From Staphylococcus phage SAC, in sequence record OR234014.1: a stretch of DNA of 64,000 bases; one strand, 5' to 3'. How positions within the stretch are numbered: the stretch's first letter is position 1; each line of letters begins with the position of its first letter. The notes under the pieces were generated by a model. The model made no database searches and was not told where the DNA came from. It was given only the letters and a program-made list of their open reading frames with translations. Of this stretch, positions 2,974 to 62,849 are shown piece by piece. A program made the translations under genes and the position numbers.

Positions 2974-4272
2974 TTACTACCGTTACTTTCGTAATACTTT
3001 AACATTCATTTAAGAATCGGTTTAGACTATATCATAACCCTTATTTTTGGTTAAGGGCTCCTTGCTTTACACTAATAACTTTTTATTTAAATAATTTTCA
3101 ATGTCTTTATATTTTCTTTTACCATAATCTACTTCAAGAAGTAAATAACCGTTATCTTCTGCATAACTTCTCTTTAACTCATCTCTTAATTTTTGTTTTT
3201 TAAATGCCATCTCTCCACCAAAAGATTTTACTGGTTGATAATGTTGTATTCCTTGATACTCTATTAATGTATCATACTCAGGTAAATAAAAGTCATAAGA
3301 AAGTGACTTATTGTAAATTAAATCATCAAACTTTTTCTGTATTTCATATTTAATATTATTATTAATCAAATATTCTTCTACAATCTTTTCTCCAATAGAC
3401 ATTTTACATTTAGGACACATGTCTCTCTCCATAAGATGAGAAGCTCTTATTTCCCATGTTAAACCACATTTATGTCTAACTAAAACTTTAGATTTAGAAT
3501 TAATATACTCTGATAGAACTTCATAATCATTACCGTATTTTTTCTTAACTTCATCTAAAAATTGTTGATGGGTTCTTCTTTGTTTTAAATTATGTTCTTT
3601 CATTCTACAATGAAAACATCTGCTTTTCCTTGATATAAAATCATTAGGTTTGACTTCCCATTCTTTTCCACATACATTATGAATTAACTTTACTTTATTA
3701 GTGACTCCTGTATACTCACCAATTAAAGAATACTCATCACCGACTAAATCATGAAGTTCTTTTTTAAATTGCTTTGTAGTTTTAGATTTCCTACCTTTTC
3801 TTTTATTATTACAGGCAGGACATCTGTTACCATCTAAAAAAGATTTAGGCTTTACTAAGTATTCATTATTCCCACAAGTCTCAGAATTATGCCTCATAAG
3901 TATTTTTGTTTTATTATTTACATATTCTCCTAAAACTTCATATTCATTCGATACTCTATCGTATACTTTTTTCTTAAATTCTTCTGTAGTTATTTTAATT
4001 GCCATTTTAACACCCCCCCTTTCTTTATACATTTTTTTTATTAAAAGTTATTAGTTTTTATCTAGTTCTCACTATATCCATTTATATAGTTACCTAGGAA
4101 TTTAGTCGTTCGGCATTTACTATAATTTAATTATACCATATAATGTTATCTTGTAAATAATTAAATTATAGATTTAGCACAGGATTGCTTTATGCTTTTT
4201 ATAGCACTTAAGGTTTCCCTGTTTAACAAGGTTATTCGATATATATTACTATATAAAGGGGCTATACCATTA
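2974..4272 (-). mobile_element. Group I intron A (~1.3 kb) in terL with an intact homing-endonuclease ORF in a peripheral loop
   Basis: RC contains IA-type R element AACGACUAAAUU (about 4085-4100) and S element AUAUAGUCUAAAC (about 3020-3035). 3' region is homologous to introns B and C. Begins with in-frame UAA right after exon 3. Boundaries +/-10 nt. Confidence 0.7.
3067..4032 (-). CDS. Intron-encoded homing endonuclease: three ~50-aa zinc-ribbon (CxxC) repeats plus a C-terminal Vsr/DUF559-like PD-(D/E)xK nuclease domain
   Basis: Repeats KVYDRVSNEYEVLGEYVNNKTKILMRH / LHDLVGDEYSLIGEYTGVTNKVKLIHN / VKKKYGNDYEVLSEYINSKSKVLVRHK; C-terminus ...YDFYLPEYDTLIEYQGIQHY matches the DUF559 'DF..P....IE.DG.QH' signature. 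Confidence 0.65.
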   Translation of the reverse strand: MYKERGGVKMAIKITTEEFKKKVYDRVSNEYEVLGEYVNNKTKILMRHNSETCGNNEYLVKPKSFLDGNRCPACNNKRKGRKSKTTKQFKKELHDLVGDEYSLIGEYTGVTNKVKLIHNVCGKEWEVKPNDFISRKSRCFHCRMKEHNLKQRRTHQQFLDEVKKKYGNDYEVLSEYINSKSKVLVRHKCGLTWEIRASHLMERDMCPKCKMSIGEKIVEEYLINNNIKYEIQKKFDDLIYNKSLSYDFYLPEYDTLIEYQGIQHYQPVKSFGGEMAFKKQKLRDELKRSYAEDNGYLLLEVDYGKRKYKDIENYLNKKLLV

Positions 4273-4977
4273 ACCCAAAGAATAGTTATAAAATGCTTGC
4301 TTAGAATCTGTATTCATTTCTTTCTCTACTAATTGGCTTGCACTTATCCATACAGCATTCATCTGTGAAATGTAGTAACCCCTAATACCTGAATTATTTT
4401 TTGTTCTTTCTGGATACCTTACTTTCCAAATGCCATTATACCAACGGTCTAGGGGTTTTCCACATTTCTGACAAACGTATTGATATGTACCTTCTTGTAC
4501 TGTTTTAGCTTGTTCATCAATACCATCTGGGTTTAAAAGTAAAAGATTACCACTCTTATTTAAGTCATTAGGGTCATAATCAGCATATTTCATTTCGTTT
4601 TCATATTGACAATGTTGACACACATGAGCATAGTACCATTGGTCAGATTGTTGATATAATTTGTGTATACCTACCCCAGGTGCTGACGGAGTTGAGAATC
4701 TTCTTACTACTTTAAAAGGTGAACTTGACATAGACTCTAAAGCCGAACTTTCGGCTAGTGAGTTCACCCTCTCAAATTCGTCCATTGCGAGGAAGTCTAT
4801 GTCAACACCCTCAACTGAACCTGGTTTACTACTAGTTCTAAAAAACAAACTTGAGTTTCTAATTTGTTTATAGCCTAAGGAGTCTTTATCCCAATTCACA
4901 ATATCTCTAAAATAAGTTTTATCTAATACAGGATTAAGACGTGACTGTACAAATTTCTTTAACTGCTCTTGTGTCAT
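4270..4977 (-). CDS. terL: Terminase large subunit, exon 3 (Walker B / ATPase C-terminal part)
   Basis: VDIDFLAMDEFERV Walker-B-like motif; ends ...YSLG then an in-frame TAA that is the first triplet of intron A. An in-frame TAA sits 2 codons upstream of the ATG, so the true exon start is at or after 4977 (best model: 4974, intron ending at the G of ATG). Confidence 0.65.
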   Translation of the reverse strand: MTQEQLKKFVQSRLNPVLDKTYFRDIVNWDKDSLGYKQIRNSSLFFRTSSKPGSVEGVDIDFLAMDEFERVNSLAESSALESMSSSPFKVVRRFSTPSAPGVGIHKLYQQSDQWYYAHVCQHCQYENEMKYADYDPNDLNKSGNLLLLNPDGIDEQAKTVQEGTYQYVCQKCGKPLDRWYNGIWKVRYPERTKNNSGIRGYYISQMNAVWISASQLVEKEMNTDSKQAFYNYSLG

Positions 4978-5480
4978 TTTTTACCCTTGGTTTCCCGATA
5001 TTTATTAGGGGATTAGACTATATCATAGCTACTAATTTTGGTTAGTAGCTCCTTGCTTTACTTTTTTAACTAAATACGAAAGTATATTGTCTATTTCATC
5101 CATGTTATAATAGTAAGGTATTCGTATCAATGATATGTTGTTATCTTTGGCATATATAACAGTATACTCGTCACCTACTAGATTATACACATCTTGAACA
5201 AACTCTTTATGTGTTTTCTTTTTAGTCATTACAATATACCTTTTCTTTCTTACATGTTTAGTTAAAATTTTCTTATACTATTTTCACTATATCCGTTTAT
5301 ATAGTTATTAGTAAGTTTAGTCGTTAGGCTTTTAGCTAACTTTATAAATACAGTATAACATACACTACATATAAAGTCAACAGTTAGCACGGTTGGTTCC
5401 CACTGTCTGTGTATAGTCAGATTTAGGGTTTCTTACCAGTATATTGTTTTTTCTATACATTATTTTACTATGCCCGTTTA
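4978..5480 (-). mobile_element. Group I intron B (~500 nt) in terL carrying a degenerate homing-endonuclease remnant
   Basis: R element (RC of about 5300-5320 gcctAACGACUAAAcu) and S element (RC of about 5015-5030). 3' end ...aaauaucgggaaaccaaggg is homologous to intron C; starts UAAACGGGCAUAG like intron C's 5' end. Confidence 0.6.
5032..5229 (-). pseudogene. Homing-endonuclease remnant (65 aa) inside intron B
   Basis: THKEFVQDVYNLVGDEYTVIYAKDNN aligns to one zinc-ribbon module of the intron A endonuclease, but the nuclease domain is absent. Confidence 0.5.
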
Positions 5481-5672
5481 ACAAGGTTTTAATTCCCCCA
5501 CACTGTTTAATCGAGGGAACGTATAGAGGCACTTTACATTTCTGTAACTATACATGTCAGCAAAGTGTACCATTTCCATTACTGACATCTCACTGAGTCC
5601 TAATTGTCTACTCTTAATTACCGCTTTATTAGGGTGACTATCGTTGACAATCTTAACTTGCCCACTACTACC
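5481..5672 (-). CDS. terL: Terminase large subunit, exon 2 (deviant Walker A KSRQLGLS)
   Basis: Stop-free frame GSSGQVKIVNDSHPNKAVIKSRQLGLSEMSVMEMVHFADMYSYRNVKCLYTFPRLNSVGELKPC. KSxxxGxS is a lambda gpA-type deviant P-loop. Flanked by introns C and B; ends TGT then in-frame TAA. Confidence 0.55.
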
Positions 5673-5957
5673 CTCGGTTTCCCGATATTTATTAAGGGTT
5701 TAGACTATATTATAGCCCTTAGTTTTGGTTAAGGGTTCTCTGCTTTACTTCTCTATAAAGAGTTTTCTTATCTAGTTCTCACTATCTCCATTTAGATAAC
5801 TACCTAGAAATTTAGTCGTTAGAGTTTTTCCTCTACATGTTGTAGATTCTTTACTACGGTATCAGCTCTATCCATTAGGACTTAGCTTTTCTTACCAGGA
5901 TATTCTTTATTTTCCTATGACCGTTTAACAGAGTTTAAAGACCACAGCACTAGTTTA
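5673..5957 (-). mobile_element. Group I intron C (~285 nt, ORF-less) in terL
   Basis: RC has ctctAACGACUAAAUUUcuagg (R element, about 5800-5822) and AAUAUAGUCUAAAC (S element, about 5700-5715). Begins UAAACUAGUG directly after the exon 1 codon CCA. Confidence 0.6.
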
Positions 5958-6152
5958 TGGTCTATGAGCTTGTGCTTTACTTCTGTCCCTGTTTGGAATA
6001 CTAAAAGTTATCGGGTGACCTCGTAACGTATGATATTTTAGCATATAAGTACTAGGGTTTAACATGTTGATAATATGGTCAACTTGTTCTTGCGTAACAT
6101 TTTGTGTACCGAATGTTTCTTGTGTTATTTTTAATAATTCTTTACCATCCAT
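5958..6152 (-). CDS. terL: Terminase large subunit, exon 1 (N-terminus)
   Basis: MDGKELLKITQETFG...NRDRSKAQAHRP with SD AAGGTG 8 nt upstream; reading frame closed by the TAA that begins intron C. Confidence 0.55.
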
Positions 6153-14479: not shown

Positions 14480-14668
14480 ATGTTTAAGAAATTGTTCGTT
14501 ATTTTAGTTGATGGTTTTGAAGTTAATGTTATTGCAGATGACTATATCGAAGCAGAAGAACATTGTTATAAGTTTTTTGATTTCTCTACTATAAAATTAC
14601 AAGACTACAAAGAGATTTATACAAGTGAGATGTTCCCTTGCTTTGTAGAAGGGCATAAATATGCATAA
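14480..14668 (+). CDS. Hypothetical protein (62 aa)
   Basis: SD AAAGGGG; overlaps the rnh start. Confidence 0.5.
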   Translation: MFKKLFVILVDGFEVNVIADDYIEAEEHCYKFFDFSTIKLQDYKEIYTSEMFPCFVEGHKYA

Positions 14669-15086
14669 GACTGCATTAATATATACAGATGGTAGCTCAT
14701 CTTATAATAAAGGTCTTGTTGGAGCAGGGGCTATTATTTTAGATAAAAATGAGAACATTGTAAAAGAAATCAGTAAACCTATTGAAAATAGTAGTTTAAT
14801 TAAGTATAATAATGTTGCAGGTGAAATACTAGCTTGTTGTTATGGTATTGAAGAGTCTATAAAACTAGGTTATAAGCAGGCTATTATTCATGTAGATTAT
14901 ATAGGACTTATTCAATGGTATGAAGGTTCGTAGAAAACTAAAAACAATTTAAGTAAAACATATATTAATATGCTAAGGGAATACTCAAAGTTTATAGATA
15001 TAAATTTTATAAAAGTAAAGGCTCATGATAATAACAAATGGAATGAATATGTAGATGCATTAGCAAAAAAAGCAATTGGAATATAA
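14661..15086 (+). pseudogene. rnh: Ribonuclease H (RNase HI family) interrupted by an in-frame TAG at 14931-14933; the uninterrupted length would be 141 aa
   Basis: IYTDGSS, GAGAIIL, GEILA, HVDY upstream of the stop; KVKAHDNNKWNEYVDALAKKA (the RNase H C-terminal helix with the last catalytic Asp) in the same frame downstream. Confidence 0.65.
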
Positions 15087-16415: not shown

Positions 16416-16555
16416 AATAAAGGAAAGGAATATTAAGAAGGAGACTTTTTATATAGTATAGGAGAGTATTTGTTTTGTCCTGCTATAGTATATAAAAGAA
16501 AAGGAAAAATGATGTATAAGCAATAACATATAAAATCACTCAAGGAGAATGAAAT

Positions 16556-18856
16556 ATGAGACAACTAATACTAATGAGAGGTGCTCCAGGCTCAGGTAAA
16601 ACAACGTATATAAAAGAAAATGGATTAGAGGGATATTCTCTTAGCCCTGATGTCCTTAGAATACAATACAGCTCACCTGTATATGATATAGAAGGAAACC
16701 TTAGAATATCACAAGAAGAAGACAACAAGGTATGGGATTTATTATTTAGCATATTAGAAAAGCGTATGGAAAATGGAGAATTTACTGTAATAGATGCTAC
16801 ACATTCTACGGCTAAACTAATTAAAAAATATGAGAAGTTATCAAAAAAATACGGATATAGAGTATATGTGGTTAACATAGAAGCAGAGCTAGACACTCTT
16901 TTTGAACGTAATAATAATAGACAAGAACTAAAGAAAGTTCCTGTGGATGTTATTGAAAATATCTATGAGCGTTTAAAACATGAGAATATCCCAAGTTTTG
17001 CAAAAGAAGTAGATAAAAATGATTTGTTAAATACTATTAAGTGGGACAAAAATCTCATGAATACTGATTCATATGAGAAAATTCATGTAATTGGAGATGT
17101 CCATTCTTGTTTTACAGCCCTTCATTCTCTTTTCCCTACTGATTACATTATAGATAATCAAAATGAACTCTTCATATTTGTCGGAGATTATTTTGATAGA
17201 GGATTAGAATCGAAGCAAATGTTTGAGTATCTTGAGATTATTTATAAATTAAAAAACGTCATTCTATTAGAAGGAAATCATGAAAGACACCTTCGCAGAT
17301 ATACTCAGTTAGAAAAAGAAGACTATGATAATATTTGTTTAGCCTATAGTTGGGTAGATATTAGTGAAAAAGATTTTTATAAACAAGCTTTAAAAATATT
17401 TCATGCAAGAGGATTTATACCTACCTTGAAATCCTTCATAGAGAACGGAATAACTCAAAATAGAGTAAAGTCTATTCTTAGAAAGTTACAGCAGGTGGCT
17501 TACTTTAGTTTTAAAGGTCAAGACTACATTGTTAGTCATGGCGGAGTCCTTCCTGAAGTTCTTGATAATTTAAATAAGATTTCAACAAGTCAGCTTATTA
17601 ATGGAATCGGGGGATATGATTTTAATGTTGATGACCAATGGGAACATTCTAATACAATACAAATACATGGACATAGGAATTTATATAGAGAGCCTTTAGA
17701 TACTACTAAAAATTCAGTTAATTTAGAAGGTCGTGTAGAAAAAGGTGGTTGCTTAAGAGCTATAACGATAAATAAAAACAACAGTATTGAGAAGAATGAA
17801 GTAAAAAACACTATTTACGACCCTAAATTCCTTTTATCAAACAGACGGAACGATAGTATTGACAAAGACCTCACTCCTAATCAATACCTAGATATAGCCA
17901 GAAAAGAAAATAAAACCATCAAAACCAATCAACAATATAGAGATGTGTTCTCAGTTAACTTTACAAAAAGAGCTTTTTCTAAAAAGAAATGGAACCAATT
18001 AACAGTGAGTTCTAGAGGTCTTTATATTGATGAAGATAGAAACACAGTACTAGGAAGAGGATATAATAAGTTCTTTAATATCAATGAAGTAGAAGAAACC
18101 AAATTAGAGAATATGCCAGACACTATCCAATTCCCTTTAACTGGATATAAGAAAGAAAATGGATTTTTAGGACTAATGTTCTATGACCCGTTAGAAGGAA
18201 TTATATATGCAAGTAAATCTAAAACCCATTTAAGTGGACATGGAAATAAATATGCACTACTATTTAAAGAGTTAGTAGAAAAAACTTTAACCAAAAGACA
18301 AATACAAATACTAGCAACATTCCTTGAAAACCATTATATTGCTGACGATAGTTTTACCCTAGTGTTCGAGGTAGTTGATATCGAAGAAGACCCTCATATC
18401 ATAAAATATCGAAAAAGCGATATCTTCTTACTTGATATTATTTCAAATACGTTAAATATGAAAAAGAAAGATTATGATTATTTGAAATATGTTGCTGATG
18501 AAGTAGGATTACAACTAAAAGAAAAAGAGTTGGAGTTTGCTAGCTGGGAAGAATTTTATAAATGGTATAAGGATAATAATGGCTCTTATAATATATTGCA
18601 TGAAGGGTATGTATTTGAAGATTTGAAAGGATTTATGTTTAAATATAAGTCTGACTATTACAAAGACTGGAAATATATGAGAGATATAGCTTACTCCTTA
18701 TCACAAAGAAGAGATGTAAGACCTAAGCAATATATTTTAACAAGAAACCCTGAACTTAGAGATTTTTATTATTGGGCTAAAATGAAAGACTCAGAAGAAC
18801 TGAATAAAGATATCATCACACTAAAAGATGAGTTTGAAAAAGAAAAGGAGAAGTAG
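16556..18856 (+). CDS. Trifunctional polynucleotide kinase / calcineurin-like phosphatase / RNA ligase (Pnkp-like RNA repair enzyme), 766 aa
   Basis: N-terminus GAPGSGKT P-loop with the T4-Pnk-like layout (TVIDATH...GYRVYVV). Middle domain has metallophosphatase motifs GDVHS, GDYFDRG, GNHE and GH.H. C-terminal domain has nucleotidyltransferase motif I YKKENGF (K-x-N-G). Confidence 0.65.
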   Translation: MRQLILMRGAPGSGKTTYIKENGLEGYSLSPDVLRIQYSSPVYDIEGNLRISQEEDNKVWDLLFSILEKRMENGEFTVIDATHSTAKLIKKYEKLSKKYGYRVYVVNIEAELDTLFERNNNRQELKKVPVDVIENIYERLKHENIPSFAKEVDKNDLLNTIKWDKNLMNTDSYEKIHVIGDVHSCFTALHSLFPTDYIIDNQNELFIFVGDYFDRGLESKQMFEYLEIIYKLKNVILLEGNHERHLRRYTQLEKEDYDNICLAYSWVDISEKDFYKQALKIFHARGFIPTLKSFIENGITQNRVKSILRKLQQVAYFSFKGQDYIVSHGGVLPEVLDNLNKISTSQLINGIGGYDFNVDDQWEHSNTIQIHGHRNLYREPLDTTKNSVNLEGRVEKGGCLRAITINKNNSIEKNEVKNTIYDPKFLLSNRRNDSIDKDLTPNQYLDIARKENKTIKTNQQYRDVFSVNFTKRAFSKKKWNQLTVSSRGLYIDEDRNTVLGRGYNKFFNINEVEETKLENMPDTIQFPLTGYKKENGFLGLMFYDPLEGIIYASKSKTHLSGHGNKYALLFKELVEKTLTKRQIQILATFLENHYIADDSFTLVFEVVDIEEDPHIIKYRKSDIFLLDIISNTLNMKKKDYDYLKYVADEVGLQLKEKELEFASWEEFYKWYKDNNGSYNILHEGYVFEDLKGFMFKYKSDYYKDWKYMRDIAYSLSQRRDVRPKQYILTRNPELRDFYYWAKMKDSEELNKDIITLKDEFEKEKEK

Positions 18857-18857
18857 A

Positions 18858-19487
18858 ATGACAAATTTAATGAAAGAACTTCAGGTGTATCATGCATCGG
18901 ATATGTTGATGCAAGGGTTAAAAGAATATAGAATCAAACAAAAAGAAGAGATGGAAAGTATTGTTGGTATTAAAGTTTTTGACCCTAGCTCACAATCATT
19001 TAACGATAAAAAGAATACAGACTCACATAAGTTGGCAGAACGAATTGTAGAAAACGACACGTGTGCTATTGAGGAATCTGATATTTATGTTATTGATTTG
19101 CCTATTAGCGGTAATGGAGGTTTAGGAACCATCACCGAGTTAGGTCAAATTTTTCAAATGAAAAGACAAGCACAAATTACTATTGACAGGCTAAACGACT
19201 TATATGATATTTATTACCTTGATGTAAATGGTGAATTAACAGATGTAGCAACAGTTTTAGATAAAGAGCTTGAAATTAACGAGAAAATACTAAATAAACC
19301 TGTTTTAATTTACTCTAGTGACATCAGATGGAACACAACAGATATGCATGATGATATGGATAGAGTTCCATATTCCTTTAACGCTTACGTATACGGAGTA
19401 GCTTTATCTTTAACAGACGGTAAAGGTGTTATTTCATGGGAAGAAGTTTTAGGGGAATTAGAAAAGTTAGGTGCATCTAATGTCTAA
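18858..19487 (+). CDS. Nucleoside 2-deoxyribosyltransferase-like protein (~209 aa)
   Basis: GTITELGQI resembles the NDT catalytic Glu motif (MELGYA); SD AAAAGGAGAAG upstream of ATG 18858. Confidence 0.4.
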   Translation: MTNLMKELQVYHASDMLMQGLKEYRIKQKEEMESIVGIKVFDPSSQSFNDKKNTDSHKLAERIVENDTCAIEESDIYVIDLPISGNGGLGTITELGQIFQMKRQAQITIDRLNDLYDIYYLDVNGELTDVATVLDKELEINEKILNKPVLIYSSDIRWNTTDMHDDMDRVPYSFNAYVYGVALSLTDGKGVISWEEVLGELEKLGASNV

Positions 19488-20264: not shown

Positions 20265-20528
20265 ATGGATTTAATAGATAATAAAGAAGTAACTAGTACC
20301 GATGAGATTATTTTTAAAAGTAAATCTAAAAATTTATATATTAGTGACATAGATATAATATCTAAAGTTACTATGTACACAGATGAGTTAGAGGAAGTTT
20401 TAGCAATGCCTAATACTATTAACTTTAAAAATTCTAAGAAGTACAAAGACTTAATGAGTAATCCCGATATTGTACCCGTAAGAAGAACTAAAAAAATTAA
20501 ATATGAAATTTATCTAGAAGAACTGTAA
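20265..20528 (+). CDS. Hypothetical protein (87 aa)
   Basis: ORF followed by a terminator. Confidence 0.5.
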   Translation: MDLIDNKEVTSTDEIIFKSKSKNLYISDIDIISKVTMYTDELEEVLAMPNTINFKNSKKYKDLMSNPDIVPVRRTKKIKYEIYLEEL

Positions 20529-20545
20529 AAAAGTTCTTCTTTTTT
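20513..20545 (+). terminator. Rho-independent terminator
   Basis: gaagaac-tgtaaaaaa-gttcttc plus TTTTTT. Confidence 0.65.
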
Positions 20546-20606: not shown

Positions 20607-22646
20607 ATGTCAGTAGAATATAAAGAAACAGGATTAACGGAAGAAGAAATTCTTAAATTGTCTAAAGTAAATAGAAATAGTATATTTATAGGTGAAGAAA
20701 GAGTATATTTAAAAATAAATAATAAAAATATTGTAGATATTGGCTCTAAAGAATTATTAAGAGATATTAATAATACCTTTTGTTATTCTAGCGCTTTAAA
20801 TTTACTTTTATTTATAGCATTATGTGGAAATAAAAAACTTACTACGTTTAAGGGAGACCCATATAAAAAAGTACAAGAGTTAAGTAAAACAGTTACAGAT
20901 GTAAATACTGTATATAGTGAGTATATAGAAAGTGACGATAGGTCTGAATTTCCTTTATATAACAAAAGACACTATCGTAATAATATATACTGCCGTGCAA
21001 ACTATGAAAATGAACTAAAACAGTTTGACAATACGCAAAATAAGAATAGTAATAATTACCTTACAAAAAAAATAAGAGACTTAAAAAGACAAATAAATAC
21101 TACAACTAATGATATACTTGATGTATTATTAATGGGTGACTATAGTATATTTGGTATTAATATTGACCCTTATGCATTTGGTAAATCTTATGATAATAAC
21201 TACGAATACTACAATGAAGTTTTAAAAAATATAAAAATAGGGCTTAACAAATTAACACCTATAAAAGATAATAATACTCCGTTTTTAATTAAGACTTGTT
21301 ATTTAAAAGACATAAGTATAGTAACAACAGATTGGAGTATAGTAAACGGTGACTTTAATAATAAAAATGGAAATGTATACCTACACCTATCAAATACACT
21401 ACAACATAAAGAATTTAAATTTAATATGTATGAAGATGATTTTAATAAGGATAAACTAAAAAATAACATTACTTTACCTGTCCTTTTAAATATTATTTTA
21501 AGTAAATATGGAAAGGAAAATTTAGCTTTTAACATAATAATCCAAACACTAAAGAATAATGATTATTACTTAAATCTAAGTAGACTTAATGTAAAAAACT
21601 TTGATGTATACTCTATGATAGATAGACCTGATGGTTATCGCACAGTTAGTAAAGGTGAAAATGCTACTGATAATTTAAACAATCTGTTAAAATTAGTTGT
21701 GTCTAATATTGATAAAGTTTATAACAACGAAGATTGTGATATATTTAAAGAACACAAAGAGTTTCTAGTAATACCAAACAAAAATAAATGGAAATTACAT
21801 GAAGCTTTAAATTTAAGTAAACAAACATATAATAAGTTTATTACTCTTAGTAAAGAAGAGCAAGAAAATTACCTTAATATACTTCGAGTTATCATAAATA
21901 AATTTCCTAGTTTATATAATGAGTCTAACTTACACAAACTATTCGATGACGACTTTATAATGGTGACTAATTCATATTCAATAGGAAATGCTTTATCTTT
22001 TAAAGGTACTACGAAAGAAGTTCTTAACTTTTCATTTTCTGACTTTAGAAAAATGGTGAATTATATAAACTATGATGTCAGAAACAGACAACGTATACAT
22101 TCATACGCTGTTAATAATTTATATAGAGATTATATAGACTTTGCTTCAGACCTAGTACTTCTTGGATATAGAACTAAAGAAAGTATTAACTTAACACCAT
22201 ATTCTTTAAAACTAGAGCATGATATTGTTACTGATGAGTATTTAACAGTTAAAGATGAAGTCGATGACTTAAAGTTACAACAAAAATATGATAATAAATT
22301 AAATAATATCACAAATAAAGAATATAAGTTAAATGATGGCTCTAAAGTTAAATTTTTACCTGCGGATACTACTGAAAAATTAAAAAGAGAAGGTGAACAG
22401 CTATCTCATTGTGTCGGCAGTTATGCTTCGAATATTATAAATGACAGATGTTTAATATTACTAGCTAGAAAAGTTGACGATTTAGAAAAATCATGGTATA
22501 CTGTAGAAGTAAGGATAACAAAATATGGATATACGTTAGGTCAACAACAATCTTTAAAAAGTCATGAGTTACCTAAAGAATTAAAAGACGAATTAATAAA
22601 AGATATTAAAAATATAAATAAACAATTTAGTGAGGATGTTGCGTAA
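20607..22646 (+). CDS. Large protein (679 aa) with a PcfJ-like C-terminal domain
   Basis: C-terminus ...KLKREGEQLSHCVGSYASNIINDRCLILLAR... resembles the PcfJ-like (E..L.HCV..Y) signature; N-terminal 500 aa low-complexity N/K/Y-rich. Confidence 0.45.
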   Translation: MSVEYKETGLTEEEILKLSKVNRNSIFIGEERVYLKINNKNIVDIGSKELLRDINNTFCYSSALNLLLFIALCGNKKLTTFKGDPYKKVQELSKTVTDVNTVYSEYIESDDRSEFPLYNKRHYRNNIYCRANYENELKQFDNTQNKNSNNYLTKKIRDLKRQINTTTNDILDVLLMGDYSIFGINIDPYAFGKSYDNNYEYYNEVLKNIKIGLNKLTPIKDNNTPFLIKTCYLKDISIVTTDWSIVNGDFNNKNGNVYLHLSNTLQHKEFKFNMYEDDFNKDKLKNNITLPVLLNIILSKYGKENLAFNIIIQTLKNNDYYLNLSRLNVKNFDVYSMIDRPDGYRTVSKGENATDNLNNLLKLVVSNIDKVYNNEDCDIFKEHKEFLVIPNKNKWKLHEALNLSKQTYNKFITLSKEEQENYLNILRVIINKFPSLYNESNLHKLFDDDFIMVTNSYSIGNALSFKGTTKEVLNFSFSDFRKMVNYINYDVRNRQRIHSYAVNNLYRDYIDFASDLVLLGYRTKESINLTPYSLKLEHDIVTDEYLTVKDEVDDLKLQQKYDNKLNNITNKEYKLNDGSKVKFLPADTTEKLKREGEQLSHCVGSYASNIINDRCLILLARKVDDLEKSWYTVEVRITKYGYTLGQQQSLKSHELPKELKDELIKDIKNINKQFSEDVA

Positions 22647-28617: not shown

Positions 28618-29403
28618 ATGACTAAAAAAATTAAAAATATTGAAATTGTTTTTGAAAACTTAGATAGTGCGGTATTAGAACCAGAAAATGTAGAGTTGAT
28701 ACTAGAAGGTATTAGTGAAGAAAAAACTATGATATATGGAAATAGTGAAGTAGATACAAGTAAATCAGCAAAAAAAGTTTCTATTGAGGTAAGTGGTATG
28801 AAGGATGAATACTTTGAAGAGTTTCATGGTTTCTTAGATGAGCCCTACAACATGACATTATATGATAGATTAAGTGGCAAAGATATTGTTTGTGTTTGTT
28901 TGAATTATGAGGATGGTACAGACGATACTGTATATGTACCTTATCCTGAGTATGGGCAGTATAATTATATGCAGAGAAATAAGTACGAAAAAGAAATAGA
29001 CACTTTATTTATTACAATAGAGGATAGAGAACAAGAAGAACATGTACCAAATGATGAAAAACCTAACTTTAATGAAGGTGAAACAGAAGACCGCACGCTA
29101 GATGGTTTAGTTAGTCAAGTAGAGGAATGGAGTAAAGATAAAGGATTGGACAATAACAATCCTGATAGACAAGCCCTTAAATTCTACGAAGAAGCAGGTG
29201 AAGTAGCATCGGCATTATCACGTGGTAACCTAGAAGCTCTTAAAGATGGTATTGGGGACACTGTAGTTACTTTAATTATTTTAGCTCAGCAACACGACAT
29301 GTCATTACAAGAGTGTTTAGAGTTTGCTTACGATGAAATTAAAGGTCGTAAAGGAAAAACAGTTAATGGTACCTTTATTAAAGAGGAAGATTTAAATGAG
29401 TGA
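28618..29403 (+). CDS. Protein with a C-terminal MazG-like nucleoside-triphosphate pyrophosphohydrolase domain (261 aa)
   Basis: ALKFYEEAGEVASA...DGIGDTVVTLIILA is the EE..E/D metal-binding helix pair of MazG/HisE-like NTP-PPases. Confidence 0.5.
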   Translation: MTKKIKNIEIVFENLDSAVLEPENVELILEGISEEKTMIYGNSEVDTSKSAKKVSIEVSGMKDEYFEEFHGFLDEPYNMTLYDRLSGKDIVCVCLNYEDGTDDTVYVPYPEYGQYNYMQRNKYEKEIDTLFITIEDREQEEHVPNDEKPNFNEGETEDRTLDGLVSQVEEWSKDKGLDNNNPDRQALKFYEEAGEVASALSRGNLEALKDGIGDTVVTLIILAQQHDMSLQECLEFAYDEIKGRKGKTVNGTFIKEEDLNE

Positions 29404-47588: not shown

Positions 47589-48320
47589 TTATAGCTGGTT
47601 TTTAAAGAACTGATAAGCTAGTACAATGTTGGTACGCTCTTTATTATCTCCTTCATTCATTTCTAATCCTTTTTTTAGAAATTCTTCTAAATTTCCTTCC
47701 CAACATCCTACAAATACTTTATTATATTTAGGTAGGTACGTTACTTTATTTTTAAAACTACCAATATTATCTATAGAATACATTTCTAAACCTCTAATAC
47801 CTTGAGTACTTGCCCAAGACAGCTCAGCACCTGTTAAATCAACATAGCTTAAGTTAACATCTAATAAATTAGCAGACCTTAAATCAGCGTTTGTTAAATT
47901 AATACCTGATAAGAAGGCACGCTTTAAGTCAGCCTCTATTAAAGTAGCATTTGTTAAATCACTATCTAATAAATCAACACCTGTTAAGTTAGCTTCTTCT
48001 AAAGAAGCATATCTTAAGCTAGAACTTAATATATCAGCATAGTTTAAATCCGCATATGCTAAGATAGCTTCTGTTAAATTAACTTCTATTAGTTTAGCAC
48101 AACTTAAATCAGCATGCCTTAAATCTGCTCCTGTTAAATCTACATAACTTAAATCAGCACCTATTAAGGTAGCTTCTCTTAAATCAACATCCTTTAAATC
48201 TAGGTCACGTAAGTCTGTAAAACTTAAATCTGCTCTTTTACCTTCTTCCTCATTGCTTTCTATCCATAATTTATGTTCTTCTAGAGCTTTATTTAATTCT
48301 TCTTTTGTTATTGTTTTCAT
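47589..48320 (-). CDS. Pentapeptide-repeat protein, copy 1 (243 aa)
   Basis: More than 20 consecutive A(D/N)L.. pentapeptides (ADLSYVDLTGADLRHADLSCAKLIEVNLTEA...). Confidence 0.75.
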   Translation of the reverse strand: MKTITKEELNKALEEHKLWIESNEEEGKRADLSFTDLRDLDLKDVDLREATLIGADLSYVDLTGADLRHADLSCAKLIEVNLTEAILAYADLNYADILSSSLRYASLEEANLTGVDLLDSDLTNATLIEADLKRAFLSGINLTNADLRSANLLDVNLSYVDLTGAELSWASTQGIRGLEMYSIDNIGSFKNKVTYLPKYNKVFVGCWEGNLEEFLKKGLEMNEGDNKERTNIVLAYQFFKNQL

Positions 48321-50451: not shown

Positions 50452-50702
50452 TCCCCTTCCTCCTCTATATCTCTTTTTATTGCATATTCAATTAAATCTT
50501 CTTTGTCATATGGTATCATATACCAACTACCATAACTATAAATCATTATACCTAGTTCAGTAAGCTCATAATGTGTCCTATTTAATACGCATAAAAAGTC
50601 AGCACCTGACTCACCATCTACAGTATCTAACCAACAAATATATGGTAATCTATCCATAACATTAAGTATATGTTTATGTTCGTCTGAATTAAATTTTATC
50701 AA
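50445..50702 (-). CDS. Hypothetical early protein (85 aa)
   Basis: ORF overlapped by the pentapeptide copy-2 gene's end. Confidence 0.45.
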   Translation of the reverse strand: MIKFNSDEHKHILNVMDRLPYICWLDTVDGESGADFLCVLNRTHYELTELGIMIYSYGSWYMIPYDKEDLIEYAIKRDIEEEGEW

Positions 50703-51408
50703 TTTCTTTCACTCCTTTAAAGAAATCGTAAGCTAATTTAATTTTCTTTGAGACTTCTTTTATTCTATCTTCTTCGTACTCAAGTGTAGGTTCTAGTTTA
50801 CCAAACTCTTCAAGGGTATATTCATTATAATTACTAATAATTCTATCATAATCAGGTAAATAAGTTACATGCTCGTCAAAATCAAGTACATTACTTATAG
50901 TATATATACTTATTCCAAATACGTCAAGAGTATTAGCATAATATAATGTTGTATTAGTTAGGTTTGTACCACCGAAATCTGCACCTTTTAAATTAGCCTT
51001 ACTTAAGTTAGCATTTTTCATATTAGCCCACCTAGCGTCTGCTTCACTTACATTAGCTTCAGCTAAGCAGGCATTTTCTAAGTTTGCTTTTACTAAATTA
51101 GCCCCCTCTAAGTTAGTATGATACAACTCAATATCATTCATTCTAGCATGTGTAAATCTCGTAGATATACACTCATTGTAACTTAAATCAGAATAACTTA
51201 AATCACAATAACTTAGGTTAGCATCACTTAAACTAGACATTACAATAGTTGAATATTGAAGGTCAGCGGAATGAAAGTCAAGATTTCTTAAATCTACACA
51301 CTGTAAAAAAAGCTTTTCTCCTTCCTTTTCATTTGTAGCTAGCCATTGTTCATGCTTTTCTATCAATAAATCTAATTCAGGTTGTGTTATCCTTTTTAAG
51401 TCTTGCAT
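50689..51408 (-). CDS. Pentapeptide-repeat protein, copy 2 (239 aa)
   Basis: ANLSYCDLSYSDLSYNE...ANLVKANLENACLAEANVSEADARWANMKNANLSKANLKGADF repeats. Confidence 0.7.
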   Translation of the reverse strand: MQDLKRITQPELDLLIEKHEQWLATNEKEGEKLFLQCVDLRNLDFHSADLQYSTIVMSSLSDANLSYCDLSYSDLSYNECISTRFTHARMNDIELYHTNLEGANLVKANLENACLAEANVSEADARWANMKNANLSKANLKGADFGGTNLTNTTLYYANTLDVFGISIYTISNVLDFDEHVTYLPDYDRIISNYNEYTLEEFGKLEPTLEYEEDRIKEVSKKIKLAYDFFKGVKEIDKI

Positions 51409-52189: not shown

Positions 52190-52846
52190 CTATTTACGTT
52201 TACTAAAAAAGCAGTAAGCATCTCTTATTTCCTCAAGTTTACTATTATTTCCTTCATTCATCTCTAATCCCTTTTCTAAAAACGCTTCTAAACTACCTAT
52301 CCAACACCCTGCGTATACTCTATCTAAGCTAGGAATATAAGTCACTTTACCATTAAAAGTTCCAATATTATCTATAGAGTATACTTTTAGTCCTTTGATA
52401 TTTTGAGTACTTGCTTGGGATAATTTAGCATCTGTTAAATTGGTATTTGTTAAGTCTGCATATTCTAAATTAGCCTCATTTAATCTGGAATCTGTTAAAT
52501 TAGCTTTTCTTAAATCAGCATAATATAAATCAGTTCCATATAAAACAGAACCTTCTAAGTTAGCATCATCTAAATCAACACAGCTTAAGTTAGCACGTGT
52601 TAAGTTAGCTCTTGTTAAATCCGCACCTTTTAAGATAGCACCTCTTAAATTAGTATCCTCTAAATCAGCATACCTTAAGACAGCACCTCTTAAATTAGCA
52701 CTCCTTAAGTCAGCATCTACTAAATTAGCATTTCTTAAGATAGTATAACTTAAATCTGCTTTAGCTCCTTCTTCACTATTACTATCTAACCATAATTTAT
52801 GCTCTTCTAAAACTTTATGTAGTTCTTCTTTTGTTATTGTTTTCAT
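52190..52846 (-). CDS. Pentapeptide-repeat protein, copy 3 (~218 aa from ATG 52846)
   Basis: MKTITKEELHKVLEEHKLWLDSN... is nearly identical to the copy-1 N-terminus; SD AGGAG 7 nt upstream; the track start 52984 is a GTG in an upstream extension. Confidence 0.7.
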   Translation of the reverse strand: MKTITKEELHKVLEEHKLWLDSNSEEGAKADLSYTILRNANLVDADLRSANLRGAVLRYADLEDTNLRGAILKGADLTRANLTRANLSCVDLDDANLEGSVLYGTDLYYADLRKANLTDSRLNEANLEYADLTNTNLTDAKLSQASTQNIKGLKVYSIDNIGTFNGKVTYIPSLDRVYAGCWIGSLEAFLEKGLEMNEGNNSKLEEIRDAYCFFSKRK

Positions 52847-52868
52847 TGTTATTCTCCTATACCCTTTA

Positions 52869-53384
52869 TTAATTTGCTTGTACTCCAGCCTCAGCCTTTT
52901 CTTGTTGCGAGCGTTGTAACCATTGCTCAAAGCTCTCATTAGCACCTGCATAATTCCATGAGGCTCCTCCGCCTCCACCGCCACTAGCTTTATCTACTTC
53001 AGTTCTGTTTTCTAATTCTGCTTGTGCTTGTTGAGCTTCTCTATACTGATTGTATTTGTCCGCATACTCAGCATTAGATAGTCCATTATGTTCACTTCTG
53101 CTTGCCTCTTGCATTTGTTCGTTCTGTTGTGCTTGGTTACCTTGTACTTGGTTATCTTGTTGGTTATTTTGAACAGTGTTGTCTTCTTGAATTTGTTTAT
53201 TTTCTTGTTCTTCTACTTTAGATGAACCATCTTTCTTATTTTCTTTCTTATTTTCTTTCTTATCTTCTTTATAATCATGTGTTGGTGTATCTTCTTGTGA
53301 GTAGTAAGCACAACCTCCTAATAATAGTGTAGTGCTAAAGAATACTCCTGTTAAAATTTTATATAAGTTTTTCATATTTATCAA
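52869..53384 (-). CDS. Lipoprotein with low-complexity Q/N-rich and Gly6 segments (171 aa)
   Basis: Signal peptide with lipobox LLLGGC; KKENKKENKK and NNQQDNQVQGNQAQQNEQ repeats; GGGGGG. Confidence 0.6.
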   Translation of the reverse strand: MINMKNLYKILTGVFFSTTLLLGGCAYYSQEDTPTHDYKEDKKENKKENKKDGSSKVEEQENKQIQEDNTVQNNQQDNQVQGNQAQQNEQMQEASRSEHNGLSNAEYADKYNQYREAQQAQAELENRTEVDKASGGGGGGASWNYAGANESFEQWLQRSQQEKAEAGVQAN

Positions 53385-61595: not shown

Positions 61596-62849
61596 CTAAT
61601 CTAAGAATACAGTTTTAATGTCAATGTCTTTATTTTTTTTATTTAAAAATAGTAGTTGTTGTGATGGTTTTGTTCTAGATAAATGTAGTTCTTTAGCATA
61701 ATTATTATATCCCATAGGACTACTTGCTACAATATGCATTCTATTGTAATCTTCTTGTGTTACTGAGAAGTGGTGTACATGACCTGTAATTAACAAATCA
61801 ATGTGAGTGTTCTCAATAAATTTAGGAATATGCTTACCTTTACCTTTAAGTCCATCTCCATGGTTTATAATAATATTTAAGTTACATACTGTGTCTTTAA
61901 TAGTATATACATCTTTTCTATTGTCGATAATCTCAATACCTTCTAATACACCGTTTTCTTTTAACAGCAGTAAAGAATCCAATACAATATAAGCTACACT
62001 ATCATTGTATACTTTTTGGTTCTTATTACCCTGTACACGGTCGTGGTTACCTGCTATCATGCCGAAACGTAAATTACCCCATACATATGGAGATAATTCT
62101 GTTAAGAAGTCAATTAATAGTCTAGTTCCTTTTGCTACCTGCTCTGCCATAGTGAACTCAGTATCAAAAGCTTGGTTAACATCTCTCATATTAATATGCT
62201 CTATTAAATCACCTACAAAGTATACTGTAACATTACTAATACCACGTTTACTAATATCCTTAATAGTTTCCTGTAGTAGCTGATTTAATCTTCTTTTTAG
62301 TACCTCAAAGTTATACTCATTAGTTAAATCTTGAAAAGAACAACCTACATGGAAGTCCGACAGTAAGATAACCAGCTCTTCTTCTTCCTCAGTAGAAGCA
62401 TACTTACTTACTTTATGGTCTAGTAACTTATTCCCTTTGAGCTCATTAACCATAGTACGCTTTAATTCATCAAACAAAATAGTAGGGTATGCATTTTGTC
62501 TATTAATCTTTCGTAATTCCCTTAGTCTAGATAGTTCTTTTTCATGGGCTACTACATAAGATGATACTTCTTCATGATAATCATTACCCTCAAATACTTG
62601 TTTATCTTCTACATCTCTTAAGTCCTCTAATAACACTTCACCTTTAACTGCTTTATTTTTCAAGTCATTTAAGTATGTGTCTTTCCTAATATTATCTACA
62701 ATATCTTTTAATTCATTGCGATTTACTCTATCAATACCAAAACTTGCTAATACTTTATTAAATTTAGAGGTAACTACTTTACCTTCATCTTTAAGAAACA
62801 CACCTACAATAACTGCTTGTAACTCTTCTACTGTTTTATAATTACTCAT
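61596..62849 (-). CDS. Calcineurin-like metallophosphoesterase (Mre11/SbcD-like or protein-phosphatase-like), 417 aa
   Basis: Motifs SDFHVG, VGDLIEH, GNHD, NHGDG, GHVHH in canonical order in the C-terminal 270 aa; 150-aa N-terminal extension. Confidence 0.6.
   Translation of the reverse strand: MSNYKTVEELQAVIVGVFLKDEGKVVTSKFNKVLASFGIDRVNRNELKDIVDNIRKDTYLNDLKNKAVKGEVLLEDLRDVEDKQVFEGNDYHEEVSSYVVAHEKELSRLRELRKINRQNAYPTILFDELKRTMVNELKGNKLLDHKVSKYASTEEEEELVILLSDFHVGCSFQDLTNEYNFEVLKRRLNQLLQETIKDISKRGISNVTVYFVGDLIEHINMRDVNQAFDTEFTMAEQVAKGTRLLIDFLTELSPYVWGNLRFGMIAGNHDRVQGNKNQKVYNDSVAYIVLDSLLLLKENGVLEGIEIIDNRKDVYTIKDTVCNLNIIINHGDGLKGKGKHIPKFIENTHIDLLITGHVHHFSVTQEDYNRMHIVASSPMGYNNYAKELHLSRTKPSQQLLFLNKKNKDIDIKTVFLD

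Follow-up and report, generated by a model that had tools for sequence, protein, structure and literature searches.

RNA ligases are divided into clades by the modules appended to their nucleotidyltransferase core (PMC6379707), and three described systems are of particular relevance here. The ligase of bacterial Pnkp, as found in the Clostridium thermocellum enzyme (CthPnkp), belongs to the Rnl4 clade and seals RNA only as a heterodimer with Hen1-N (PMC6379707, PMC3675462). The ligase domain of the fungal tRNA ligase Trl1 (Trl1-LIG) represents the Rnl6 clade, the defining feature of which is an all-helical C-terminal domain (PMC6379707) that sealing, though not adenylylation, requires (PMC11404444, PMC12440814). 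Finally, T4 Pnkp together with RNA ligase 1 (Rnl1) of bacteriophage T4 provides the established precedent for tRNA restriction-repair (PMC1920235). Here, we analyze a gene on the + strand, at positions 16556–18856, of a 64,000-nucleotide stretch of Staphylococcus phage SAC (sequence record OR234014.1; hereafter, the window). Its product combines a healing half of the bacterial Pnkp/lambda-phosphatase type with a sealing half of the Trl1-LIG (Rnl6-like) type, and is in our assessment probably an autonomous single-chain RNA heal-and-seal enzyme, accessory in the phage, that would reverse the damage done by host RNases to tRNA or other RNA.

The open reading frame (ORF) encodes 766 amino acids (aa), runs from an ATG start to a TAG stop that is included in the coordinates, and is preceded, 8 nucleotides 5′ of the ATG, by a Shine–Dalgarno sequence read directly from the DNA (AAGGAG, 16542–16547, +). 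From base composition alone, the chance of a stop-free frame of 766 codons is about 5e-28. Pfam confirms a real gene with three domains, namely a P-loop kinase (AAA_33, aa 4–140, E = 4.8e-19), a lambda-phosphatase-type metallophosphoesterase (Metallophos, aa 175–379, E = 1.4e-15), and an ATP-dependent RNA ligase (RNA_lig_T4_1, PF09511, aa 486–702, E = 6.4e-34, covering positions 2–227 of the 227-position profile), which is the same single-chain order of kinase, calcineurin/lambda-type phosphatase, and ligase that an earlier note had proposed from the letters alone. PHROG 8238 (“RNA ligase”, profile length 737) matches the protein over its full length (E = 0), and the predicted structure has a predicted local distance difference test (pLDDT) score of 92.1 and a predicted template modeling (pTM) score of 0.83 for the full-length protein, with a pLDDT of 95.7 for the ligase part. 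The motifs listed in the earlier note are all present and in order (GAPGSGKT at aa 9–16, TVIDATH at 77–83, GYRVYVV at 100–106, GDVHS at 180–184, GDYFDRG at 210–216, GNHE at 240–243, and YKKENGF at 531–537), except that its “GH.H” is not literal: the actual sequence is H371-G-H373, and the other metal-binding histidine of the phosphatase is supplied by SHGG at aa 327–330.

The healing half resembles CthPnkp. Pfam AAA_33, phmmer, and Foldseek place a polynucleotide 5′-kinase domain at aa 1–165 (16556–17050, +), with the P-loop G9–T16 at 16580–16603 (+) and the catalytic residues K15, D32, R35, and R122 in the same domain. The phmmer matches for this domain are T4 Pnk (1ly1) and the kinase of CthPnkp (CthPnk, 4gp6), and Foldseek with the full-length model matches it to CthPnk at 24–27% identity (4jt2, 27%) and to T4 Pnk 1ly1 (TMt 0.79). 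The binuclear metallophosphoesterase domain follows at aa 170–420 (17063–17815, +; Pfam Metallophos, Foldseek), its Foldseek matches being lambda phosphatase (1g5b), the CthPnkp phosphatase (4j6o), and PPP phosphatases. The residues essential to the CthPnkp phosphatase are Asp187, His189, Asp233, Arg237, Asn263, His264, His323, His376, and Asp392 (PMC3675462), and eight of these nine have active-site counterparts in the phage protein, namely D181, H183, D211, R215, N241, H242, H328, and H373. On the strength of these residues and of the fold matches, the description “Pnkp-like” is fair, albeit for the kinase–phosphatase half only.

To assess conservation, we used 147 diverse representatives of 50%-identity clusters for the ligase, and the 103 of fused size for the kinase and phosphatase. 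The four kinase residues are present in 99–102 of the 103, and the phosphatase residues D181, D211, N241, H242, H328, and H373 in all of them, with R215 in 102. The exception among the metal ligands is family position 183 (nucleotides 17102–17104), in the DxH motif, where 76 of the 103 representatives have His and the other 27 have Gln, all other metal ligands being invariant. Position 118 of the family is also Gln in 27 members. By analogy with the His189 mutants of CthPnkp, the DxQ members of the family may be diesterase-only enzymes.

The sealing half is of a different kind. The adenylyltransferase domain of the RNA ligase, with an Rnl1-like N sub-domain, extends over aa 441–699 (17876–18652, +), with motif I at K533-E-N-G (K533 at 18152–18154, +) and further catalytic residues at E605 (motif III), E683-G684 (motif IV), K696 and K698 (motif V), R487, K505, and K554. 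The Rnl1-type core is present (N sub-domain, motifs I, III, IV, and V, and PF09511). It is followed by a C-terminal module of five helices at aa 700–766 (18653–18853, +), which contains K706 (18671–18673, +) and R709 (18680–18682, +), ends with an IITLKDEF motif, and is homologous to the C-domain of Trl1-LIG, which likewise has five helices (PMC11404444). The ligase residues K533, K505, G536, K554, E605, E683, G684, K696, and K698 are found in 147 of 147 representatives, and R487 and N535 in 146. In addition, all expected catalytic residues are invariant in 34 homologues at 37–61% identity. This near-invariance reflects selection on all three active sites. The earlier note had reasoned that its reading would fall if the C-terminus proved to be something other than an ATP-dependent ligase or if homologues lacked the KENG lysine; Pfam assigns the domain to the RNA ligases, and K533 is universal among the cluster representatives.

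Sequence and fold both point to Trl1. A search of the PDB sequences with the ligase part alone returned Trl1 chains only. A family profile built from 17 sequences matches Trl1-LIG with E = 4.4e-31 and 1e-22, in alignments that span the Trl1 C-domain, extend as far as residue 398 in the 407-aa LIG of Chaetomium, and take in a terminal motif common to both (DIIxLRxxF in the family, GIIKLRN[D/E]FL in Trl1). The same profile matches T4 Rnl1 with E = 1e-10 in an alignment that ends at motif V, and finds no Pnkp ligase at E ≤ 1. When ligase folds are compared (scores and alignment lengths in parentheses), the closest are fungal Trl1-LIG 6n0t (28.2, 311) and Candida glabrata Trl1-LIG 9qw7 (26.6, 308), followed by T4 Rnl1 9do4 (22.8, 252), the Rnl3 enzymes (about 17, 255–260), CthPnkp-C 4drf_A (8.4, 199), and the Capnocytophaga Pnkp1/Rnl/Hen1 ligase 4xrp_B (6.2, 182). 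The helical C-terminal domain that defines Rnl6 has a counterpart in the phage protein, whose sealing domain is structurally an Rnl6-like (Trl1-type) member of the Rnl1 superfamily. Strict membership of the T4 Rnl1 clade was considered and rejected because the C-domain is not shared: the tRNA-specificity C-domain of T4 Rnl1 is absent, and the alignment stops at motif V. The contrast that the earlier note drew with the separate Pnk and Rnl enzymes of T4 is only partly apt, since the sealing domain and T4 Rnl1 belong to the same Pfam family.

The earlier note had gone further, and assigned the protein to the bacterial Pnkp of the Pnkp/Hen1 system, which, if correct, would imply a ligase that is inactive alone and needs a Hen1-like partner encoded elsewhere. 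The order of kinase, phosphatase, and ligase and the phosphatase superfamily are indeed the same, and there is weak similarity to the NCBIfam model for this family, TIGR04075 (bacter_Pnkp). However, this similarity is confined to aa 4–251 and scores 66.7 bits where the cutoff is 750, and the ligase does not show the Rnl4-type arrangement of a helical Hen1-N-binding insert and its own C-terminal module. The domain profiles and structure prediction by which the earlier note proposed to compare the protein with CthPnkp bear out the likeness for kinase and phosphatase, whereas the ligase is closer to Trl1-LIG. Its observation that no Hen1 gene lies nearby holds for the flanking genes, and extends further: Pfam searches of the flanking ORFs and of all window ORFs of at least 150 aa found no methyltransferase, whether Hen1-type or other, and no KptA/Tpt1, RlaP, or 2H enzyme; no methyltransferase lies beside the homologues in a Bacillus prophage and a metagenomic contig; and the annotation of a relative (6.5–126 kb of 135 kb, mostly “hypothetical”) lists DNA methyltransferases as its only methyltransferases. 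We therefore reject membership of the bacterial Pnkp family on the TIGR04075 score, the ligase fold comparison, and the family-profile search, and consider a Hen1-dependent enzyme extremely improbable. As a Trl1-type ligase with its own C-terminal RNA-end-recognition module, the phage protein is not expected to need a Hen1-like activator or partner. The concern that repaired RNA would be cleaved again for want of Hen1 presumes a Pnkp-type ligase that requires Hen1-N (PMC3675462), a dependence that is not expected here.

Taking these relationships together, we infer a three-step reaction carried out by one chain. The N-terminal P-loop kinase would phosphorylate the 5′-OH of a broken RNA; the central Mn-type binuclear phosphoesterase would open, and most likely remove, the 2′,3′-cyclic phosphate; finally, the ATP-dependent ligase would seal the ends through adenylylation of K533, transfer of AMP to the 5′-phosphate, and attack by the 3′-OH. 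That the protein instead acts on DNA or proteins, as a DNA end-processing and ligation enzyme or as a Ser/Thr protein phosphatase, would be in keeping with the label “putative serine/threonine protein phosphatase” in several GenBank records, with the acceptance of DNA ends by the kinases of T4 Pnkp and CthPnkp (4mde is a CthPnk–DNA complex), and with the dephosphorylation of proteins by lambda phosphatase (PMC3675462). However, its nearest ligase relatives, Trl1-LIG and T4 Rnl1, are RNA ligases, and a protein phosphatase would not readily account for the fusion to a polynucleotide kinase and an RNA ligase or for the conservation of all three active sites. Action on DNA or proteins is thus very improbable.

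A more substantial question concerns the chemistry of the 3′-end. In fungal LIG (CthLIG), His227, Arg334, and Arg337 enforce a preference for a 2′-phosphate (PMC11404444, PMC12440814). In the profile alignment these residues correspond to H614 (18395–18397, +), K706, and R709 of the phage protein, giving a His-Lys-Arg set that appears, from the alignment, to be the counterpart of the 2′-phosphate-binding triad of Trl1. H614 is His in 147 of 147 diverse representatives, position 706 is Lys in 144 and Arg in the other 3, and R709 is Arg in 144 of 147. A pairwise alignment sets the basic pair three residues earlier; we prefer the profile version, which is itself a sequence-level assignment. T4 Rnl1, which seals 2′-OH ends, has a gap at the position of the histidine, and its alignment ends before K706.

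These observations fit a Trl1-style pathway, in which the phosphoesterase works solely or chiefly as a cyclic phosphodiesterase that leaves 3′-OH,2′-phosphate ends, the ligase prefers or requires such ends, and the junction retains a 2′-phosphate. Such a pathway differs from the reading that we favor in end chemistry only. It accords with the closeness of the ligase to Trl1-LIG in sequence and fold, C-domain included, and with the Gln found at the DxH position of 27 fused members: His189 of CthPnkp is required for its monoesterase activity but not for its Mn-diesterase activity, and the H189D mutant yields only 2′-NMP (PMC2190708). We note, however, that H189Q makes CthPnkp less active as a cyclic phosphodiesterase (PMC2190708), and that the histidine is present in the window protein (His183), as it is in wild-type CthPnkp, an enzyme that takes the phosphate off completely and works alongside T4 Rnl1 but not yeast ligase (PMC1920235). 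Furthermore, the triad is a weak predictor, because plant Trl1 requires a 2′-phosphate despite lacking the two arginines and fungal LIG merely prefers one, the preference not being an absolute requirement (PMC12440814), and no Tpt1/KptA gene is found among window ORFs of at least 150 aa. In view of H183 and of the plant enzymes without the arginines, and by analogy with CthPnkp, a T4/Pnkp-like outcome, with a 2′,3′-diol end and an ordinary junction, is more likely for the window protein, and the Trl1-style pathway is unlikely.

In a still broader form, the phage family, with its approximately 900 clusters, could be a prokaryotic-virus branch of the “fungal-only” Rnl6 clade that shares its end chemistry. 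We put this forward tentatively, as an unlikely possibility. If true, the ligase would recognize the 2′-phosphate through His614, Lys706, and Arg709, and the phosphoesterase would yield 3′-OH,2′-PO4 ends, at least in the DxQ members. The 2′-phosphate at the junction would then block renewed cleavage by transesterifying RNases, so that repair and immunization would be achieved in one step and independently of Hen1, and the eukaryotic tRNA ligase domain would appear to have its origin in phage RNA-repair enzymes.

The distribution of the gene bears on its role. At the nucleotide level it is 99.3% identical to its counterpart in Staphylococcus phage MR003 and 94–98% identical to those of other Silviavirus genomes (Herelleviridae, Twortvirinae), and the window is that of a Silviavirus, a Staphylococcus myophage. 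Full-length homologues at 28–60% identity are found in Twort (ORF008), Sep1-like phages of S. epidermidis, Mammaliicoccus phages, Bacillus phages Goe11 and Goe12, Brochothrix phage A9 (gp147), and Alicyclobacillus, Fusobacterium, and Lactobacillus phages. Among about 5.8 billion proteins there are more than 1,600 matches, the best 120 of which all have the three Pfam domains and a length of about 720–790 aa, and a profile of the ligase part retrieves 917 clusters at E ≤ 1e-30 from 1.84 billion cluster representatives. Alternative architectures comprise only mobile-element insertions and kinase–ligase, phosphatase–ligase, or ligase-only forms, with no other healing or protecting modules. In homologues of about 1000 aa, the same kinase–phosphatase–ligase gene contains inserted NUMOD/I-HmuI-like HNH or LAGLIDADG modules; these may represent inteins or the read-through of intron-encoded endonucleases. 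Every context that we examined is phage or prophage DNA, including a Bacillus homologue inside an SPbeta-like prophage with AimR/AimP, YopN, YopX, and YorE/F, and a metagenomic homologue among phage replication genes on a phage-like contig.

In several close relatives, the gene is damaged. In the type species, Remus (JX846612.1, 2545–3987), it is truncated at its 5′ end to 480 aa, with loss of the kinase and about half of the phosphatase, and the same truncation is found in Romulus, PM56, and PM93. StAP1, EW15, Stau2, SapYZU04, and SSP49 retain only 3′ remnants (aa 456–758, 655–760, or 709–760, at 90–96% identity), some of which are unannotated. This indicates that the gene has decayed repeatedly in related lineages and is an accessory gene; conflict genes typically show a patchy distribution with decay of this kind. 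In Remus, two HNH endonuclease genes lie just downstream of the truncated gene (4004–4723 and 5380–6105), and several Staphylococcus phage records show the repair gene in two pieces (“RNA ligase x2”).

Taking the T4 system as a model, a counter-defense role is a reasonable inference, and the earlier note's view of the gene as an RNA heal-and-seal enzyme carried by a phage is plausible. A number of points weigh against this reading. The window has no tRNA genes, and no other RNA-repair genes were found among the ORFs flanking the repair gene or the window ORFs of at least 150 aa, so that the context lends an RNA role no independent support; in addition, close relatives have lost the gene, which shows that the phage can do without it under laboratory propagation. 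As to the enzyme itself, sequence comparison failed to place a counterpart of CthPnkp Asp392, a phmmer search with aa 301–425 giving nothing relevant, and the protein carries both the DxH histidine, which helps CthPnkp to remove the phosphate completely, and a Trl1-like triad of the kind that recognizes a 2′-phosphate in fungi. An alternative is a role in the phage's own RNA metabolism, in which the enzyme rejoins RNAs cut by phage nucleases, or processes or circularizes phage or host RNAs. This would entail the same biochemistry, and the gene lies among early/middle genes of unknown function, next to one for RNase HI. However, the patchy accessory distribution and the decay in close relatives are more in keeping with a conflict gene than with a housekeeping function, the window contains no phage tRNA genes, and group I introns, which are common in such phages, self-splice without a ligase. 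We accordingly regard a role in phage RNA metabolism as improbable, and retain the repair of host-inflicted RNA damage as the preferred explanation.

It is useful to set this protein against the systems introduced above. With CthPnkp it shares the single chain running from kinase through binuclear metallophosphoesterase to ligase, the kinase fold with its P-loop, Asp, and Arg residues, and the lambda-type phosphatase, and a kinase–metallophosphatase module likewise works with an ATP-dependent RNA ligase in Capnocytophaga gingivalis Pnkp1-Rnl-Hen1 (PMC4411300). In fungal Trl1 (LIG structures 6n0t, 6n67, 9qw7, and 8rbj) the order is reversed, LIG-KIN-CPD, and the 3′-end is healed by a 2H cyclic phosphodiesterase (CPD), whereas the phage protein has no 2H domain and would use its metallophosphoesterase; sequence identity is only about 20%, and in the phage protein Lys replaces the first of the two triad arginines. 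Trl1 is, moreover, a eukaryotic housekeeping splicing enzyme, whereas the phage protein is the product of an accessory gene. T4 Pnkp (PseT) and RNA ligase 1 (RnlA) offer the functional analogy of a phage-encoded kinase, 3′-phosphatase, and ligase that reverse tRNA cleavage, a role that the phage protein may share along with the kinase fold and the ligase family. The T4 activities are, however, divided between two separate proteins, the T4 phosphatase is a DxDxT acylphosphatase (PMC3592404) and not a metallophosphoesterase, and the tRNA-specificity domain of Rnl1 has no equivalent in the phage protein. The “tRNA ligase/kinase” fusions of giant viruses are also viral single chains with an Rnl1-superfamily ligase and end-healing modules, in a different domain order; the structural relatives in BFVD, from Bodo saltans virus, an iridovirus, and Hokovirus, are of low similarity (TM about 0.25–0.3, 11–19% identity). 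Baculovirus AcNPV ORF86 (Pnk/Pnl) is another single-chain fusion of ligase and healing modules, with a different order and a HAD-type phosphatase.

Immediately downstream of the repair gene, a nucleoside 2-deoxyribosyltransferase-like gene (18858–19487, +; a weak Pfam match of 20.5 bits, below cutoff) begins 1 nucleotide past the stop, with its own ribosome-binding site, AAGGAGAAG. From this spacing and signal, the two genes are probably co-transcribed, and possibly translationally coupled, and the start at 18828 given for the second gene in the ORF list is probably too early. The arrangement of the two genes is kept in Koomba-kaat_1. PQ-loop, LysM, and small genes follow, up to the first terminator-like hairpin downstream on the + strand (20516–20540, from a consensus scan only), which is the probable end of the transcription unit. 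A promoter scan remained at chance level in this AT-rich DNA, with 68 sites against 62.7 expected.

The genes flanking the repair gene comprise those for RNase HI and the deoxyribosyltransferase-like, PQ-loop, LysM, and PcfJ-like proteins. In the RNase HI gene upstream (14661–15086, +), a G-to-A change at about 14932 turns TGG (Trp91) into TAG and interrupts the gene. The codon is TGG in Koomba-kaat_1 and Remus, where the product has 141 aa and the remainder of the gene is 99% identical; the stop reflects either an amber mutation of recent date or an error in sequencing. The PcfJ-like protein (679 aa, 20607–22646, +) and a MazG-like pyrophosphohydrolase (28618–29403, +) are encoded in the same early/middle block, and both families are often tied to phage–host conflict. 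Three pentapeptide-repeat proteins lie within 6 kb of each other on the − strand (47589–48320, 50689–51408, and 52190–52984; Pfam E = 1e-22 to 1e-34); proteins of this kind are often DNA mimics, and these could be anti-defense or gyrase-interacting. A second Metallophos protein (417 aa, 61596–62849, −), annotated as “exonuclease” in a relative, is unrelated to and separate from the repair enzyme. Finally, the match of a 234-aa ORF (4270–4977, −) to the ATPase domain of the terminase large subunit is incomplete (positions 65–233 of the GpA_ATPase profile), which suggests a split or intron-interrupted terminase gene, and the adjoining ORF (3067–4032, −) carries a CapR homology domain together with a treble-clef zinc finger.

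The existence of the gene is not new, as it is present in many public phage genomes and in a PHROG, and RNA repair by a phage enzyme is in general an old idea. Full-text literature searches found no characterization of the family and no statement of the Trl1/Rnl6 C-domain and triad outside eukaryotes, although the architecture may be catalogued in Burroughs and Aravind 2016 (Nucleic Acids Research, NAR). The C-domain of Trl1-LIG and its 2′-phosphate residues have been described as unique to the fungal tRNA ligase and put forward as an antifungal target (PMC6379707, PMC11404444, PMC12645390), and recent papers on Trl1 still call the C-domain distinctive of the clade (PMC12645390, PMC12440814). 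What the present analysis brings to this is a hybrid, in which a Pnkp-type healing half is joined to a Trl1-type sealing half, and the occurrence, across hundreds of phage and prophage lineages, of a Trl1-type module that shares these key positions.

For the evolution of RNA repair, the family offers a concrete prokaryotic-virus relative with which to trace the origin of eukaryotic tRNA ligase, and for its mechanism, a compact single-chain enzyme in which to ask whether the triad alone dictates dependence on a 2′-phosphate. Public annotations of the gene disagree, ranging over hypothetical protein, Ser/Thr phosphatase, 2′,3′-cyclic phosphodiesterase, RNA ligase, and polynucleotide kinase, and need harmonizing. 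For phage biology, this is a widespread candidate counter-defense gene in Staphylococcus phages of the therapeutic type (Silviavirus, Twort, and Sepunavirus), and host range on strains with RNA-cleaving defenses could depend on whether it is present, truncated, or absent.

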